IMG/VR virus record: IMGVR_UViG_2778261541_000008
Coordinates: 1-31,393 of that record
Strand: one strand, 5' to 3'
Origin: a virus
Taxonomy: Duplodnaviria; Heunggongvirae; Uroviricota; Caudoviricetes
Length of the DNA: 31,393 bases
This document shows positions 1 through 21,252 of the stretch, one piece after another (position 1 is the stretch's first letter; each line of letters opens with the position of its first letter). Under the pieces are notes generated by a model. That model was not told the origin of the DNA, searched no databases, and worked only from the letters and a program-made list of their open reading frames with translations. The position numbers and the translations under genes are program-made.

Positions 1-1958
<1,958 letters not shown>

Positions 1959-5740: not shown

Positions 5741-6601
5741 ATGAATCAATCATTTATCTCCGATATTCTTTACGCAGACATTGAAAGTAAGGCAAAAGAA
5801 CTAACAGTTAATTCAAACAACACTGTGCAGCCTGTAGCGTTGATGCGCTTGGGGGTATTCGTGCCGAAGCCATCAAAGAGCAAAGGAGAAAGTAAAGAGA
5901 TTGATGCCACCAAAGCGTTTTCCCAGCTGGAGATAGCTAAAGCCGAGGGTTACGATGATATTAAAATCACCGGTCCTCGACTCGATATGGATACTGATTT
6001 CAAAACGTGGATCGGTGTCATCTACGCGTTCAGCAAATACGGCTTGTCCTCAAACACCATCCAGTTATCGTTTCAGGAATTCGCTAAAGCCTGTGGTTTC
6101 CCCTCAAAACGTCTGGATGCGAAACTGCGTTTAACCATTCATGAATCACTTGGACGCTTACGTAACAAGGGTATCGCTTTTAAGCGCGGAAAAGATGCTA
6201 AAGGCGGCTATCAGACTGGTCTGCTAAAGGTCGGTCGTTTTGATGCTGACCTTGATCTGATAGAGCTGGAGGCTGATTCGAAGCTGTGGGAGCTGTTCCA
6301 GCTTGATTATCGCGTTCTGTTGCAACACCACGCCTTGCGTGCCCTTCCGAAGAAAGAAGCTGCACAAGCCATTTACACTTTCATCGAAAGCCTTCCGCAG
6401 AATCCGTTGCCGCTATCTTTCGCCCGAATCCGTGAGCGCCTGGCTTTGCAGTCAGCTGTTGGCGAGCAAAACCGTATCATTAAGAAAGCGATAGAACAGC
6501 TTAAAACAATCGGCTATCTCGACTGTTCAATTGAGAAGAAAGGCCGGGAAAGTTTTGTAATCGTCCATTCTCGCAATCCAAAGCTGAAACTCCCAGAATA
6601 A
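5741..6601 (+). CDS. repA: Plasmid replication initiator RepA (P1 type, iteron-binding)
   Basis: 286-aa ORF flanked upstream by five iterons and downstream by nine, the diagnostic P1 R-replicon arrangement; the length equals P1 RepA as I recall it. Confidence 0.85.
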   Translation: MNQSFISDILYADIESKAKELTVNSNNTVQPVALMRLGVFVPKPSKSKGESKEIDATKAFSQLEIAKAEGYDDIKITGPRLDMDTDFKTWIGVIYAFSKYGLSSNTIQLSFQEFAKACGFPSKRLDAKLRLTIHESLGRLRNKGIAFKRGKDAKGGYQTGLLKVGRFDADLDLIELEADSKLWELFQLDYRVLLQHHALRALPKKEAAQAIYTFIESLPQNPLPLSFARIRERLALQSAVGEQNRIIKKAIEQLKTIGYLDCSIEKKGRESFVIVHSRNPKLKLPE

Positions 6602-6970: not shown

Positions 6971-7000
6971 TCACTCATACGAAATGATAAGGAGATGATG

Positions 7001-8206
7001 ATGAAACGCGATTACGGCGGTGTCGGCACCATAGCTCTTCGTGCAAGCGCATTACTTAAGGCCATGAGTCAGGATATTGAAGATCAGCGCAAAGAGTTCA
7101 ATCAGACCGAGTATTATCAGACGTTCACTCGTAACGCTGTGGCAAAGTTGCCGAAGCTGAGCCGCCGCATTGTGGAGCAGGCCATCAAAGAGATGGAAGA
7201 TGATGGGTACCAGTTCAACAAGAAACAGGTCGGTAACGTTGAACAGTACGCGCTGACCATCCAGAACGTCATTGATATCTATGCCCACCGTAAGATCCCC
7301 AAATATCGCGACATTCACAAATCGCCTTACGTTATTTTTGTCGTAAACCTGAAGGGTGGCGTATCCAAAACGGTTTCCACAGTCACGTTGGCGCACGCTC
7401 TGCGTGTGCATCAGGATTTACTGCGTCACGATCTGCGCATTCTGGTAATTGACCTTGACCCTCAGGCATCCAGCACAATGTTCCTCGACCATACTCACAG
7501 TATTGGTTCCATCCTGGAAACCGCCGCGCAGGCGATGCTGAACGACCTGGACGCGGAGACGCTACGCAAAGAGGTGATTCGTCCGACCATCGTTCCTGGC
7601 GTAGACGTGATTCCAGCCTCTATCGACGATGGCTTTGTTGCCAGCCAATGGAAAGAGCTGGTTGAAGAGCATCTTCCCGGACAAAATCAGTACGAAATCC
7701 TTCGACGCAATATCATTGATCGTGTTGCGGATGATTATGACTTTATCTTTATTGATACCGGTCCACACCTGGATCCGTTCCTGCTCAACGGTCTGGCGGC
7801 CAGCGATTTGCTGCTTACCCCTACCCCACCAGCCCAGGTTGACTTCCACTCAACACTGAAATATCTCACCCGTCTGCCAGAAATGCTGGAGCAACTGGAG
7901 GAGGAAGGCGTAGAACCGCGTTTGAGCGCCAGCATTGGTTTTATGTCGAAGATGACCGGCAAGCGCGATCACGAGACATCACACAGCCTTGCGCGTGAGG
8001 TTTACGCCAGCAACATTCTGGACTCTTCTCTGCCTCGTCTGGATGGCTTTGAGCGATGCGGCGAGTCTTTCGACACCGTAATCAGTGCCAACCCGCAATC
8101 GTATCCAGGCAGTGCAGAGGCGCTGAAGAAGGCACGAACCGAGGCCGAGCGTTTCACTAAGGCTGTGTTTGATCGAATTGAGTTTGTTAGGGGTGAGGCG
8201 GCATGA
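7001..8206 (+). CDS. parA: Partition ATPase ParA (type Ia, P1-like, with N-terminal DNA-binding extension)
   Basis: Walker A-type VVNLKGGVSKTVSTVTLAHAL; C-terminal FLPRLDGFERCGESFDTVISANP...AVFDRIEF closely matches P1 ParA as recalled. Start placed at the third ATG (7001) for spacing from AAGGAG; the ORF opens at 6995. Confidence 0.9.
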   Translation: MKRDYGGVGTIALRASALLKAMSQDIEDQRKEFNQTEYYQTFTRNAVAKLPKLSRRIVEQAIKEMEDDGYQFNKKQVGNVEQYALTIQNVIDIYAHRKIPKYRDIHKSPYVIFVVNLKGGVSKTVSTVTLAHALRVHQDLLRHDLRILVIDLDPQASSTMFLDHTHSIGSILETAAQAMLNDLDAETLRKEVIRPTIVPGVDVIPASIDDGFVASQWKELVEEHLPGQNQYEILRRNIIDRVADDYDFIFIDTGPHLDPFLLNGLAASDLLLTPTPPAQVDFHSTLKYLTRLPEMLEQLEEEGVEPRLSASIGFMSKMTGKRDHETSHSLAREVYASNILDSSLPRLDGFERCGESFDTVISANPQSYPGSAEALKKARTEAERFTKAVFDRIEFVRGEAA

Positions 8207-9168
8207 AAAAAATAGTTTCCCGTGGACGAGTGCTGGGCAAGAATAGCTCCGAGTTTGCTCGCATGCTTGAAGGCAGTGAAGGCACCAAAACCTTTACCCT
8301 AAAATCTGGCCGCCAGGCTAAATTCTTGCTTACCGTCGTGCTGAGTGGTGAGATTGAGTCGCGCACGTTCGTTGACCCGGCAGTTAACGGCCGCGATCAG
8401 TCTCTGCTCACCCCTGAGTCGGTAAGCGATATTTCCCGCACCATTAAATTGCAACAGTTCTTCCCGGCTATCGGTCGTATGGTTGGGGAGCGCATTGAGG
8501 TATTGGACGGATCGCGTCGCCGTGCTGCGTGTATCTTCAATGAAACGAAATTTGAGATTCTGGTGACGAAAGATGAGATCAGCCTGGCGGATGCCCGCCA
8601 GCTGGCCATTGATATCCAGACAGCCCGCGAACACACTCTGCGCGAGCTGGGTAAACGCTTCGAGGTTATGTACGGTAAGAATATGACCAAAGAAGAGATC
8701 GCCCGAGCTGAGAACATCTCAAAGGCTAAAGTGACGCGAGCTTTCCAGGCTGCCGCGGTGCCGGATGAGATGATTGCTGTCTTCCCCGTAGCCAGCGAGC
8801 TCGCCCTTCCAGATTACCAGTTACTGCTCCAGATCGCCGAGGATGCTAACGCTAAAAGCGTGCCGATTGAAGAGCTGGTTGATACGGTGCGCGAACGAAT
8901 TGCAGAGACTGAGGGCGCGAAAGAGGATAAAGCGAAGATACTGGCTATCTTCAAAGCGGAAAGCAAAAGCCTGAAGCCCGCGCCGGTTAAATCTGTGGTG
9001 GTTGAGAAGCTGCGAGACTTCTCTGACCGTCGCCAATATGCCCGAAAGAAGTCCGATCCGAAAAAACGGGTTGTCGCCTACGAGTTCTCCAGACTCCCGT
9101 CTGAAGTGCAAACTGAAATTGACGAAGCAATAAAAAAAATCATTGGGAAAATGTCTGCTGGGGAATAA
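8203..9168 (+). CDS. parB: Partition centromere-binding protein ParB
   Basis: 321-aa ORF translationally coupled to parA (ATGA overlap); size and position match P1 ParB, and a parS-like site lies directly downstream. Confidence 0.8.
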   Translation: MKKIVSRGRVLGKNSSEFARMLEGSEGTKTFTLKSGRQAKFLLTVVLSGEIESRTFVDPAVNGRDQSLLTPESVSDISRTIKLQQFFPAIGRMVGERIEVLDGSRRRAACIFNETKFEILVTKDEISLADARQLAIDIQTAREHTLRELGKRFEVMYGKNMTKEEIARAENISKAKVTRAFQAAAVPDEMIAVFPVASELALPDYQLLLQIAEDANAKSVPIEELVDTVRERIAETEGAKEDKAKILAIFKAESKSLKPAPVKSVVVEKLRDFSDRRQYARKKSDPKKRVVAYEFSRLPSEVQTEIDEAIKKIIGKMSAGE

Positions 9169-9214
9169 TCCCGCTGGTGGGAGGCGGCTTTAGCCCCCTC
9201 CCCTGTCTAAAATG

Positions 9215-9296
9215 TCCCGCGTCTATTTCATGTATAAATATATGATATATATAGATATTCATGAAAAATTTCAGACTGAAATTCCCACGGTTTCAC
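9215..9296. other. parS-like partition centromere: heptamer A-boxes and hexamer B-like boxes flanking an AT-rich putative IHF site
   Basis: Left arm tcccgcgtctatttcat; AT-rich core tgtataaatatatgatatatatagatattcatg; right arm tgaaattcccacggtttcac. Same layout as P1 parS right arm (TGAAATCGCCACGATTTCAC as recalled) but with TCCCAC/TCCCGC in place of the TCGCCA B-box. Confidence 0.55.
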
Positions 9297-9355
9297 GCCT
9301 GTTTTACTTGCCCCCCTCCCCCGCACAAAAAATTTAAAAAATTACTTTTAGCGAG

Positions 9356-9385
9356 AAAGTCAACAAGTGACTTTCAATAAAATCT
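9356..9385 (+). promoter_or_regulatory. Candidate late promoter: inverted repeat aaagtca-acaag-tgacttt followed by a TAAAAT -10-like hexamer
   Basis: Perfect 7-bp-arm palindrome about 15-20 bp upstream of a TANNNT hexamer, ~50 bp before the head gene. This resembles the recalled architecture of P1 Lpa-dependent late promoters (inverted repeat near -22 plus -10). Confidence 0.35.
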
Positions 9386-9413
9386 CTTCCGAAAAGGGAT
9401 TCACACAAGTGCC

Positions 9414-11141
9414 TTGTGTTTAAGGAAGAGTAAATTGAGTAACTTACGCGAATACCAGAATCGTATTGCAGATATCGCAAAACGCTCTAAAGCTGTGCTT
9501 GGCTGGGCAAGCACTGCGCAGTTCGGTACTGATAACCAATTCATTAAAGATGATTCCGCGCGTGCCGCATCTATCCTTGAAGCTGCACGTAAAGACCCGG
9601 TTTTTGCGGGTATCTCTGATAATGCCACCGCTCAAATCGCTACAGCGTGGGCAAGTGCACTGGCTGACTACGCCGCAGCACATAAATCTATGCCGCGTCC
9701 GGAAATTCTGGCCTCCTGCCACCAGACGCTGGAAAACTGCCTGATTGAGTCCACCCGCAATAGCATGGATGCCACTAATAAAGCGATGCTGGAATCCGTC
9801 GCAGCAGAGATGATGAGCGTTTCTGACGGTGTTATGCGTCTGCCTTTATTCCTCGCGATGATCCTGCCTGTTCAGTTGGGGGCAGCTACCGCTGATGCGT
9901 GTACCTTCATTCCGGTTACGCGTGACCAGTCCGACATCTATGAAGTCTTTAACGTGGCAGGTTCCTCTTTTGGTTCTTATGCTGCTGGTGATGTTCTGGA
10001 CATGCAATCCGTCGGTGTGTACAGCCAGTTACGTCGCCGCTATGTGCTGGTGGCAAGCTCCGATGGCACCAGCAAAACCGCAACCTTCAAGATGGAAGAC
10101 TTCGAAGGCCAGAATGTACCAATCCGAAAAGGTCGTACTAACATCTACGTTAACCGTATTAAGTCTGTTGTTGATAACGGTTCCGGCAGCCTACTTCACT
10201 CGTTTACTAATGCTGCTGGTGAGCAAATCACTGTTACCTGCTCTCTGAACTACAACATTGGTCAGATTGCCCTGTCGTTCTCCAAAGCGCCGGATAAAGG
10301 CACTGAGATCGCAATTGAGACGGAAATCAATATTGAAGCCGCTCCTGAGCTGATCCCGCTGATCAACCACGAAATGAAGAAATACACCCTGTTCCCAAGC
10401 CAGTTCGTTATCGCGGCTGAGCACACGGTACAGGCGGCGTATGAAGCACAGCGTGAATTTGGTCTGGACCTGGGTTCCCTACAGTTCCGCACCCTGAAAG
10501 AATACCTGTCCCATGAACAGGATATGTTGCGTCTCCGCATCATGATCTGGCGTACTCTTGCGACCGACACCTTTGACATCGCTCTGCCGGTTAACCAGTC
10601 CTTTGATGTATGGGCAACCATCATTCGTGGCAAATTCCAGACTGTATATCGCGACATTATTGAGCGCGTTAAATCTTCTGGTGCGATGGGGATGTTTGCT
10701 GGTGCTGATGCAGCATCTTTCTTCAAACAGTTGCCGAAGGATTTCTTCCAGCCAGCCGAAGACTATATCCAGACTCCGTATGTTCACTACATCGGTACCC
10801 TGTTCGGTAACGTGAAAGTGTACGAAGTACCTGCTGGTATTTGTAAGAACTTAACGACAGAGAACATTCAGTTCAGCTCGATGGATGTGCTGTGCTACGT
10901 CCGTGATGAAAATCCGGGTAAAGCAGGCTTCGTGACTGGTGATGCTGTCCCGGCCATCCCGTTCCAGCATCCGACCACTCCGGCGCTGGTCAACCGTACC
11001 ACGCTGTGGGGTTCGGCTATCAACGATATGCACCCACGCAACGGCGCTGATTACTTCACTCGTGTAACGCTGACAATGGCCAAAAAAGGCGGGCTTAACT
11101 TCATTAGCGGCGACACGATTGATGCCGGTGACTCTGAGTAA
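9414..11141 (+). CDS. Putative major head (capsid) protein precursor (P1 gene 23 position)
   Basis: 575-aa ORF immediately after parS, as gene 23 is in P1; helical N-terminal region then a large beta-rich body; followed by a GC-rich hairpin. The true start may be the TTG at 9435, 6 nt after AAGGAAG, rather than the TTG at 9414. Confidence 0.55.
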   Translation: MCLRKSKLSNLREYQNRIADIAKRSKAVLGWASTAQFGTDNQFIKDDSARAASILEAARKDPVFAGISDNATAQIATAWASALADYAAAHKSMPRPEILASCHQTLENCLIESTRNSMDATNKAMLESVAAEMMSVSDGVMRLPLFLAMILPVQLGAATADACTFIPVTRDQSDIYEVFNVAGSSFGSYAAGDVLDMQSVGVYSQLRRRYVLVASSDGTSKTATFKMEDFEGQNVPIRKGRTNIYVNRIKSVVDNGSGSLLHSFTNAAGEQITVTCSLNYNIGQIALSFSKAPDKGTEIAIETEINIEAAPELIPLINHEMKKYTLFPSQFVIAAEHTVQAAYEAQREFGLDLGSLQFRTLKEYLSHEQDMLRLRIMIWRTLATDTFDIALPVNQSFDVWATIIRGKFQTVYRDIIERVKSSGAMGMFAGADAASFFKQLPKDFFQPAEDYIQTPYVHYIGTLFGNVKVYEVPAGICKNLTTENIQFSSMDVLCYVRDENPGKAGFVTGDAVPAIPFQHPTTPALVNRTTLWGSAINDMHPRNGADYFTRVTLTMAKKGGLNFISGDTIDAGDSE

Positions 11142-11201: not shown

Positions 11202-12674
11202 ATGTCTCAATATTCAATTCAACAGTCATTAGGTAATGCATCTGGCGTCGCGGTTAGCCCGATCAATGCCGATGCGACGTTATCTACCGGTGTTGCATTA
11301 AATAGCAGCTTGTGGGCTGGTATTGGCGTATTTGCGCGTGGCAAGCCGTTTACTGTTCTTGCGGTTACTGAGTCCAATTACGAAGATGTTCTCGGCGAAC
11401 CGCTGAAGCCGTCTTCCGGCTCACAGTTCGAACCAATTCGCCATGTGTACGAAGCTATTCAGCAAACGTCTGGTTATGTTGTCCGTGCTGTTCCGGATGA
11501 TGCGAAGTTCCCGATTATTATGTTCGATGAATCAGGCGAACCGGCTTACAGTGCGTTGCCATACGGTTCTGAAATTGAACTTGATAGCGGCGAAGCCTTT
11601 GCTATCTACGTTGATGATGGTGATCCGTGTATTTCACCTACTCGTGAGTTAACCATCGAAACGGCAACAGCGGACAGCGCGGGTAATGAACGCTTCCTCT
11701 TAAAACTGACCCAGACGACTTCGCTCGGTGTGGTAACGACCCTGGAGACACACACTGTGTCTTTGGCGGAAGAAGCGAAAGATGACATGGGCCGCTTGTG
11801 TTATCTGCCTACGGCTCTGGAAGCCCGTTCTAAATATCTGCGTGCGGTTAAAGTGCTGAATAATGCGCCGTACATGTACACCGCTGTTCTTGGCTTGGGC
11901 TGCTATGACAATGCGGCTATCACCGCATTAGGTAAAATCTGTGCAGATCGCCTGATTGATGGCTTCTTTGATGTCAAACCGACATTGACGTACACGGAAG
12001 CGATCTCTGCTGTTGAAGATACCGGTTTACTTGGTACCGATTATGTAAGCTGTGCTGTCTATCACTTCCCGTTCTCCTGCAAAGACAAATGGACCCAATC
12101 CCGTGTGGTCTTCGGTCTGTCTGGCTCGGCGTATGCGGCGAAAGCTCGTGGCGTCAAGAAAAACTCTGATGTCGGCGGTTGGCATTACTCACCGGCTGGT
12201 GAAGAACGTGCCGTCATTGCTCGTGCGTCAATTCAACCGCTGTATCCGGAAGATACCCCGGACGAAGAAGCAATGGTCAAGGGCCGTCTCAATAAAGTAT
12301 CTGTTGGCACCTCTGGCCAGATGATCATCGACGATGCTTTAACTTGCTGCACGCAGGATAACTATCTGCACTTCCAGCACGTCCCATCCCTGATGAATGC
12401 AATCAGCCGTTTCTTTGTCCAGTTAGCCCGACAGATGAAGCATAGCCCGGACGGTATTACTGCAGCTGGCCTGACTAAAGGGATGACCAAACTTTTAGAT
12501 CGCTTTGTCGCCTCCGGCGCTCTGGTGGCTCCTCGTGATCCTGATGCTGACGGTACAGAACCGTATGTGCTGAAAGTTACGCAGGCGGAATTCGATAAAT
12601 GGGAAGTAGTCTGGGCCTGCTGCCCGACTGGCGTAGCCCGTCGTATCCAGGGCGTACCGCTGCTTATTAAGTAA
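11202..12674 (+). CDS. Putative contractile tail sheath protein (P1 gene 22 position)
   Basis: 490-aa ORF with an RBS, directly after the capsid gene and upstream of a tube-like gene; size matches myovirus sheath proteins. Assigned by synteny, not by motif. Confidence 0.45.
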   Translation: MSQYSIQQSLGNASGVAVSPINADATLSTGVALNSSLWAGIGVFARGKPFTVLAVTESNYEDVLGEPLKPSSGSQFEPIRHVYEAIQQTSGYVVRAVPDDAKFPIIMFDESGEPAYSALPYGSEIELDSGEAFAIYVDDGDPCISPTRELTIETATADSAGNERFLLKLTQTTSLGVVTTLETHTVSLAEEAKDDMGRLCYLPTALEARSKYLRAVKVLNNAPYMYTAVLGLGCYDNAAITALGKICADRLIDGFFDVKPTLTYTEAISAVEDTGLLGTDYVSCAVYHFPFSCKDKWTQSRVVFGLSGSAYAAKARGVKKNSDVGGWHYSPAGEERAVIARASIQPLYPEDTPDEEAMVKGRLNKVSVGTSGQMIIDDALTCCTQDNYLHFQHVPSLMNAISRFFVQLARQMKHSPDGITAAGLTKGMTKLLDRFVASGALVAPRDPDADGTEPYVLKVTQAEFDKWEVVWACCPTGVARRIQGVPLLIK

Positions 12675-19930: not shown

Positions 19931-19947
19931 AAATTTATTAGAGCATT
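19931..19947 (-). promoter_or_regulatory. C1-type operator at the immunity-I promoter (Op51 equivalent)
   Basis: aaatttattagagcatt, 16/17 to the reverse complement of the operator consensus, in the divergent region between c4/icd/ant and the secreted-protein genes. Confidence 0.65.
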
Positions 19948-20042
19948 GTTTGTTTAATAAATACACAATTGGATCTAATAACCTCTTTTTTTAAAGGCGA
20001 AAATATGTACCCTAAATGGGTTATAAGGCAGGTGAGGTTATA

Positions 20043-20690
20043 ATGAGAAAACTATTACTACCGTTATTATTTATGGCTGGGACTGTTAATGCAGCATCAA
20101 GCGTAAAGGAGATTTGTACCGATTATACGAAATACCTTGGGCACGTTTACGGCTTTGCTGTCAGTCAAGATGAATCCATGCGCAAGAAGTTACTGTCAGA
20201 TATGAAACGCCTTAAACTTTCTGAAGCGATGGTGCAGCAAGAACTGTATAAAGTCGCAACCAACGAAAATGCTAAATATCAATATTCTCGCCTGTTAAAT
20301 CCCGACGCAAACGAGATCAATCGAAGCTCTTTCGATTATATGGTAAAGGCATGCGAAACCGCTCCTGATTTTGCTATTCCTAGCTGGGGTGTGCTGGTGG
20401 CGAGCAATGCCGTTAATAAAGAAGACGTTGGAAGAAATGGCATTGATTCAATCAGAAACTCCCCGGGAATGCGCCATCAAAACGTTCAGGGTACGCTTGA
20501 AGAACGGGCCAGGGGGCCGGGTACAAACTCCCCAATGGGAAACCTCTCCCCGGAGGAATTGCAAGAGTATAACCAACGGATGGAGCAGTATGAGAAAGCT
20601 GCACGCGAAAAAATGGAACAACAAAAAAATGGATCTCTTAATACTTTCCAGCAAGGTTTAAAAGCGCTTAATTTACCCTATGAATGGTGA
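20043..20690 (+). CDS. Secreted/periplasmic protein, candidate superinfection-exclusion (Sim-like) factor carrying a Sit-derived motif
   Basis: Start at ATG 20043 (GTGAGG RBS). Signal peptide MRKLLLPLLFMAGTVNA-AS. C-terminal segment GIDSIRNSPGMRHQNVQGTLEERARGPGT matches two segments near the Sit C-terminus. Locus corresponds to the P1 sim region next to c4. Confidence 0.55.
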   Translation: MRKLLLPLLFMAGTVNAASSVKEICTDYTKYLGHVYGFAVSQDESMRKKLLSDMKRLKLSEAMVQQELYKVATNENAKYQYSRLLNPDANEINRSSFDYMVKACETAPDFAIPSWGVLVASNAVNKEDVGRNGIDSIRNSPGMRHQNVQGTLEERARGPGTNSPMGNLSPEELQEYNQRMEQYEKAAREKMEQQKNGSLNTFQQGLKALNLPYEW

Positions 20691-20741
20691 ATATATGGTG
20701 GTTAACTAATTAAAATATTAATATCCAAAGGAGATAAATTA

Positions 20742-21218
20742 ATGCGCATCAAACGATTTTTACTAGTTCTTGCTTTGCTTACTCCGTTTTCATCAATGGC
20801 AAATGTAAGCAAATGGTCAACCGGCGAGACTCATGGTGTTCGTTCTTATGCTGTTTCCAGCAAAGATAATTATACGCTTACATTTGAGTGCGATGTTGGA
20901 TTTAATAATACGGATCCCAATCAAGTAGGAACACGACTACTCACTCTCATGAAAACAGAACCTGGCGGTGAGTCATTTGATGCTAAAAAAGAACAAATAA
21001 CGCTGAAAGTTGGTGATGATGAATATCCTATCAGTTCTATCGGTTCCTCTGTGGGTGATAGTTACTGGTATGGTTTTTGGTCAGATACCCCTGATATGGA
21101 AGTTAAAACATTCGATGCATACGTAGACGGAAAAAAAATCGCAACATTTACGCTACGTAAGGCCGCAGAGCTTTTCAACGCGGCACCTGAAGATGGCTGC
21201 CTGAAGCGCGCAAAATGA
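20742..21218 (+). CDS. Secreted/periplasmic protein of unknown function
   Basis: AAAGGAG RBS; signal peptide MRIKRFLLVLALLTPFSSMA-NV; 158 aa. Confidence 0.6.
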   Translation: MRIKRFLLVLALLTPFSSMANVSKWSTGETHGVRSYAVSSKDNYTLTFECDVGFNNTDPNQVGTRLLTLMKTEPGGESFDAKKEQITLKVGDDEYPISSIGSSVGDSYWYGFWSDTPDMEVKTFDAYVDGKKIATFTLRKAAELFNAAPEDGCLKRAK

Positions 21219-21252
21219 CCTGTCACAAATGACTACTCGTAGAATCGGTTAA

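Follow-up and report, generated by a model that had tools for sequence, protein, structure and literature searches.

Organization of the partition locus

The window, by which we mean the whole stretch of 31,393 nucleotides that was analyzed, carries a replication initiator gene, followed by a partition locus that consists of parA, parB and a centromere-like site, parS. RepA, a Rep3-type initiator of 286 aa recognized by Pfam (5741-6601), is encoded upstream of parA and is 100% identical to P1 RepA and to P7 RepA. The parA gene (6995-8206, plus strand) encodes a type Ia partition ATPase of 403 aa with an N-terminal helix-turn-helix (HTH), in which the Pfam domains HTH_54 and AAA_31/CbiA are found. 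It is the P7 allele, the product being identical to P7 ParA at 403 of 403 residues and to P1 ParA at 58%. The parB gene (8203-9168, plus strand), which overlaps the end of parA, is likewise the P7 allele and encodes a centromere-binding protein of 321 aa (Pfam PF08775 ParB, E 3.9e-33), and parS begins 46 nt past the parB stop. Considering that RepA is identical to those of both P1 and P7 while the par cassette is of the P7 type, the rep and par modules assort independently in these phage-plasmids.

ParB is identical to P7 ParB at 318 of 321 residues (99%) and to P1 ParB at 43%. The three differences from P7 ParB (N160S, E199D and A212S) are conservative and central, and residues 213-321 are identical. 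Residues 137-316 match the P1 ParB-DNA crystal structures 1ZX4 and 2NTZ (P1 ParB 142-333) with an E value of about 1e-30, and a weak Pfam match to SopB-HTH is present as well. D288 of P1 ParB, which we take to be the aspartate that reads the second BoxB2 base, has R277 as its aligned counterpart in the window, in P7 and in six ParB proteins from PLSDB (loci L003-L006, L008 and L010). The initial annotation, which regarded the site as a type separate from both P1 and P7, had proposed a comparison of the C-terminal discriminator region of ParB with those of the two phages; the comparison went against that view, as the last 109 residues are those of P7 and R277 occupies the position of P1 D288.

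Several minor features surround parS. A GC-rich hairpin (GGGAGGCGGCT/AGCCCCCTCCC, at 9179-9189/9192-9202) lies right after the parB stop and is devoid of a T-tract. A scan of 9100-9460 for promoters and terminators found neither: there was no sigma-70-like promoter by consensus, and the hairpin at 9179-9202 was not called a terminator. A 19-nt direct repeat (CCCCCTCCCC..AAAA) brackets parS, its two copies (9194-9212 and 9312-9330) being 79% identical and 118 nt apart. An extra exact box A heptamer, CTGAAAT (the form of box A3 described below), is located at 9113-9119 inside the 3′ end of parB, approximately 95 nt upstream of box B1, and belongs to a 17-nt stretch that is 82% identical to the A2-A3 region; this resemblance may be due to chance.

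Architecture of the parS site

In the P1par family, BoxA and BoxB motifs form two clusters, BA and AABA, with an IHF site between them (PMC10999674). The initial annotation recognized this arrangement in two strings, tcccgc-gtct-atttcat (9215-9231) and tgaaat-tcccac-g-gtttcac (9277-9296), with an AT-rich core between them, and these are present as described. Transfer of the box and IHF coordinates from the depositors' annotation of P7 (AF503408) defines a complete centromere-like site of the P7 type at 9214-9296 on the plus strand, which is supported by identity with P7 and by a gapless alignment with P1 as annotated by its depositors (NC_005856). The left arm consists of box B1, GTCCCG (9214-9219, plus strand), and box A1, ATTTCAT (9225-9231, plus strand), which are identical to the P7 features 'parS boxB(1)' and 'parS boxA(1)', respectively. 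A putative site for IHF, which reads TATCATATATTTA on the minus strand (9235-9247), has the same sequence as the protein_bind feature annotated for IHF in P7 and stands at the position of the P1 IHF site. The right arm contains box A2, ATTTCAG (9268-9274, plus strand), box A3, an inverted ATTTCAG that reads CTGAAAT on the plus strand (9276-9282, minus strand), box B2, TTCCCA, the main specificity determinant (9282-9287, plus strand), and box A4, GTTTCAC (9290-9296, plus strand), corresponding to 'parS boxA(2)', 'parS boxA(3)', 'parS boxB(2)' and 'parS boxA(4)' of P7. A2 and A3 form a perfect inverted repeat (AATTTCAG/CTGAAATT). The hexamers that had been taken as box B, TCCCGC and TCCCAC, are placed one base too far to the right of the annotated P1 and P7 register, in which GTCCCG and TTCCCA are the correct boxes; the site therefore starts at 9214, not at 9215. 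Box A2 was left out of the earlier list of boxes.

A three-way alignment revealed that the 101-nt region aligns with the annotated P1 parS without gaps, each box lying on its P1 counterpart at the P1 spacing, and that the two TCGCCA hexamers of P1, B1 and B2, fall on GTCCCG and TTCCCA, respectively. The composite right-arm pattern ATTTCANNNTGAAATNNNNNNNRTTTCAC has a single match in the 31-kb window, at 9268-9296, and none of 100 shuffles contained a match, even with two mismatches allowed. The alignment and the uniqueness of the right arm bear out the original view that the site belongs to the P1 family and that its boxes follow the order seen in P1. ATTTCA alone, on the other hand, is not enriched in the window (28 found versus 29.1 expected). 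As this word occurs at chance frequency and the composite is absent from the shuffles, it is the arrangement, and not the words, that carries the signal. The same caution applies to the IHF consensus WATCAANNNNTTR, which the site at 9235-9247 matches with one mismatch; matches of this quality are no more frequent in the window than expected by chance (37 found versus 37.2 expected), and thus the motif alone proves nothing.

Two further features deserve mention. AAAATG directly 5′ of box B1 (window 9209-9220), although not part of any annotated box, is invariant in the 22 P7-type alleles described below, and the P1 sequence differs at this place. The core of the window and of P7 includes an 18-nt imperfect palindrome (9226-9243/9249-9266; TTTCATG...CATGAAA, 83% complementary), which sets an inverted box A-like TTTTCAT opposite A1 and is missing from most of the other P7-type alleles.

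Identity with the P7 centromere

A megablast search revealed that the phage P7 records X17529 and AF503408/NC_050152 match window 9150-9330 over its full length of 181 nt with 98.3% identity. In the gapless pairwise alignment, not one base of the six annotated ParB boxes and the IHF site differs between the window and P7, and the three mismatches within parS are all located outside these elements. The first, at 9222 (T in the window, C in P7), is in the spacer between B1 and A1; the second, at 9256 (again T in the window and C in P7), is in the AT-rich core; and the third, at 9275 (A in the window, G in P7), is the single base between A2 and A3, which is the centre of the palindrome that they form. 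The same three positions vary freely in natural alleles whose ParB is 98-99% identical. The three single-nucleotide differences in parS, together with the three substitutions in ParB, may have small quantitative effects.

GTCCCG and TTCCCA are the AF503408 features parS boxB(1) and boxB(2) themselves. Both marks of P1 specificity, box B TCGCCA and Asp288 of ParB, are absent, the residue aligned with the latter being Arg. Neither box B nor the discriminator residue is unlike those of every characterized member of the family, as both are identical to P7. The alignment with P1 and P7 parS that had been suggested as a check gave a divided result: the B boxes are indeed unlike TCGCCA of P1, whose ParB is 43% identical, but the boxes do not differ from those of P7. 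Judging from the sequence, window 9214-9296 is almost certainly a complete P1-family parS of the P7 type with the layout boxB1-boxA1 / IHF site / boxA2-boxA3-boxB2-boxA4. The site is already known as the parS of phage P7, and its partition specificity is not new.

Natural alleles and variability of the core

The P7-type locus is widespread. The 1098-nt stretch comprising parB and parS is found in 236 PLSDB plasmids, with at least 99% identity in 80 and 100% identity in 3. The 100-nt parS allele occurs exactly in 6 IMG/VR contigs and with at least 99% identity in 43 PLSDB plasmids, and this allele is commoner in sequenced plasmids than the P7 reference allele. An allele set was compiled from the plasmid loci L003-L010, retrieved by BLAST, and from IMG/VR matches to the pattern ATTTCAGNCTGAAATTCCCAC, giving 22 distinct ungapped alleles. 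Mean column conservation in this set is 0.98 for B1, 0.99 for A1, 0.86 for A4 (NTTT[C/A]AC among the alleles), 0.84 for the annotated IHF site, 0.77 for the remaining core and 0.70 for the B1-A1 spacer. Within the IHF site, TAA....ATGA is fixed across the alleles and the adjoining bases vary. A2-A3-B2 is set by the search pattern in the IMG/VR alleles, so that its constancy there reflects ascertainment; the plasmid alleles L003-L010, obtained by BLAST, show no variation in A2-A3-B2 either. As B1, A1 and TAA....ATGA of the IHF site are outside the search pattern and are the contact elements described in the literature, their conservation supports a working centromere. P7-type parS thus exists in at least 22 alleles that differ in the core, the spacers and box A4, with boxes A2, A3, B2, B1 and A1 fixed.

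The 36-nt core (9232-9267) is 44-64% identical between plasmids that share 96-98% identity with the window in their parB DNA, and the downstream capsid-gene homologue in the core-divergent P7-type loci is up to 98% identical (L003-L010 and L132-L161 compared). This core variability could result from relaxed constraint, recombination or selection. One reading is that the site retains P7 specificity as a quantitatively different allele, in which the variant core, spacer and A4 alter the IHF dependence, the ParB affinity or the competition with other P7-type alleles. The divergence of the core at such similarity of parB, the presence of at least 22 alleles, and the core palindrome that is shared by the window and P7 and lacking in other alleles are all compatible with this reading; however, relaxed constraint on the non-contacted bases of a bent AT-rich spacer gives an equal pattern, and recombination between lineages may explain some of the divergence, which makes a quantitative difference of this kind unlikely. 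More doubtful still is the idea that hypervariability of the core is selected, such that co-resident P1/P7-like phage-plasmids diversify the geometry or IHF dependence of their centromeres for competition or for escape from incompatibility, leaving box B unchanged, and that the near-palindromic core of the window is a functionally distinct subtype.

Specificity and proposed mechanism of partition

The steps of partition at the P7-type site can be proposed by homology with the P1 and P7 systems, which have been studied experimentally. IHF would bind the AT-rich centre and bend the DNA sharply, and this bend would allow a single ParB dimer to touch both arms. The box A heptamers would be read by the helix-turn-helix domains of ParB, and the box B hexamers GTCCCG and TTCCCA by its C-terminal dimer domain. 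Further loading of ParB would lead to the partition complex, which the ParA ATPase would move on the nucleoid, providing each daughter cell with a copy of the prophage-plasmid. Specificity would be set jointly by box B, chiefly its second base, and by the residue of ParB that corresponds to P1 D288. Dabrazhynetskaya et al. 2009 reportedly found that residue 288 sets species specificity via a hydrogen bond to the second base of box B.

BoxB is the discriminator in the P1par family, and B2 decides incompatibility (PMC10999674). A2-A3-B2 constitutes the minimal 'small' parS, in which incompatibility is determined mainly by B2, and in P1 ParB it is an aspartate that reads the second BoxB2 base (PMC10999674). 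According to work of the Austin laboratory, P1 par and P7 par are heterospecific (PMC10999674). In the window, B2 is changed from P1 at positions 2 and 3 (CG to TC), and the change at the second base fits the published account of how this base is read. Both specificity partners are in the P7 state, with T at the second base of box B2 and R277 in ParB, and on this ground the parS would be expected to work with P7 ParB and not with P1 ParB. Partition incompatibility should consequently be seen with P7 and none with P1. The site had been proposed to be partition-compatible with both phages. For P1, this expectation can be retained, given the non-P1 B boxes and R277 in place of D288; for P7, the sequence predicts the opposite, i.e., incompatibility.

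A new partition specificity, in which the site would be recognized by neither P1 ParB nor P7 ParB, was the central proposal of the initial annotation. It draws on B boxes other than TCGCCA, on the three single-nucleotide differences from P7 parS and on the three ParB substitutions. However, the two B boxes and the four A boxes are those annotated in P7, as is the IHF site; the nucleotide differences fall in the spacer, the core and the palindrome centre, at positions that vary freely in alleles with 98-99% identical ParB; and ParA (100%), ParB (318/321), its C-terminal 109 residues and R277 as the D288 equivalent are shared with P7. We regard a specificity of this kind as extremely improbable, and a new specificity type was rejected on the basis of the identity to the annotated P7 boxes and the P7 ParB C-terminus. 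Hardly any weight can be given, either, to the view that the region serves mainly as a promoter or regulator of the late gene that follows it (gene 23 homologue), or is an inactive relic, instead of a working centromere: in the P1 annotation, sigma-70 promoters of gene 23 are predicted within parS and directly behind it, and in both P1 and P7 the late promoter LP23 comes after the site, but the consensus scan of 9100-9460 gave no sigma-70-like promoter, intact parA and parB lie immediately upstream, and the retention of the boxes across many independent plasmids argues for a maintained ParB target.

The P7-type parS therefore remains the reading adopted here. A box B other than TCGCCA does not imply a new specificity, because the P7 form explains the window and is widespread (236 PLSDB plasmids, as above). 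The significance of this result extends little beyond a correct annotation of the site; a mild by-product is the contrast in P7-type alleles between ParB contact boxes that do not vary and a core that changes fast.

The phage-plasmid context

The partition locus belongs to a P1/P7-like (Punavirus) phage-plasmid that has an IncY replicon. With the exception of a few cassettes, the entire window runs collinear to P7 (about 97-98% identity), and it resembles hundreds of P1-like phage-plasmids of E. coli, Salmonella and Shigella. As P1 and P7 have this RepA in common, the element should be incompatible with both at the level of the IncY replicon, irrespective of its par type. With a P7par cassette on an IncY replicon, it would thus be expected to show partition incompatibility towards P7-type elements but not towards P1par, and replicon incompatibility towards both; it is partition-mediated incompatibility alone that separates the P1 type from the P7 type here. 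P7-type par is carried by OP279344, a record labelled 'phage P1'.

Several segments of the window depart from P7. Window 1-148 is without a counterpart in the part of P7 to which the remainder of the window is collinear. Window 19946-21219, beyond its first ~240 nt, matches neither P7, which carries upf50.0/upf50.5 there, nor P1, which carries simABC. This segment encodes proteins of 224 aa and 158 aa, whose N-termini look signal peptide-like by eye, and is 99.3% identical to phage vB_EcoM-Ro157c2YLVW; matching this phage and not P7 or P1, it would seem to be an exchangeable cassette at the sim locus. In addition, the homologue of P7 Upf55.8 (ORF 11202-12674; annotated as tail sheath in NC_050152) is 490 aa long versus 529 aa in P7, about 117 nt being deleted in frame at ~11835-11849, where two BLAST segments overlap by 15 nt.

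Relationship to known partition systems

The closest relative of the site is phage P7 parS (AF503408 61630-61712; X17529), with which the window shares the six boxes, the IHF site, their spacing, the position after parB, ParA (100%) and ParB (99%), and from which it differs in the three non-box bases and in ParB N160S, E199D and A212S. Phage P1 parS/incB (NC_005856 58912-58994) has the same B-A/IHF/A-A-B-A architecture, the same position of the IHF site and nearly the same box A heptamers, and P1 also shares the domain organization of ParB and the IncY RepA. In contrast, box B of P1 is TCGCCA instead of GTCCCG/TTCCCA, ParB and ParA are 43% and 58% identical, respectively, and D288 stands in place of R277. 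The sopC/SopB system of the F plasmid follows the same type Ia ParABS logic, and ParB of the window has the weak SopB-HTH match mentioned above, but F sopC is composed of tandem 43-bp repeats, without the IHF-bent two-arm structure and without box B.

Other relatives in the P1par family are Yersinia pMT1 and Shigella pWR100 (cited in PMC10999674). Uncharacterized loci of Pantoea, Vibrio, Citrobacter and Grimontia have the same right-arm layout as the window, A2-N-A3-B2-NN-A4, most of them with a B1-A1 arm upstream. A degenerate scan for the parS right arm in one-genome-per-species contigs yielded mostly chance matches in AT-rich genomes, together with at least about 14 plausible parS sites. 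Among the matches listed, B2 is TCGCCA in Citrobacter, Pantoea latae, Grimontia, Photobacterium and Buttiauxella; TTCCCA in E. coli; TTCCCG, TCCCCC and TCGCCC in Pantoea species; TCTCCA at locus L113; and TAAGCC in Vibrio rumoiensis. Six loci with parS-like right arms (L064, L073, L075, L085, L113 and L035) have a B2 of neither the P1 nor the P7 type and are candidates for further specificity types. The P1par family has further natural forms of box B, and the window parS, being that of P7, is not among them.
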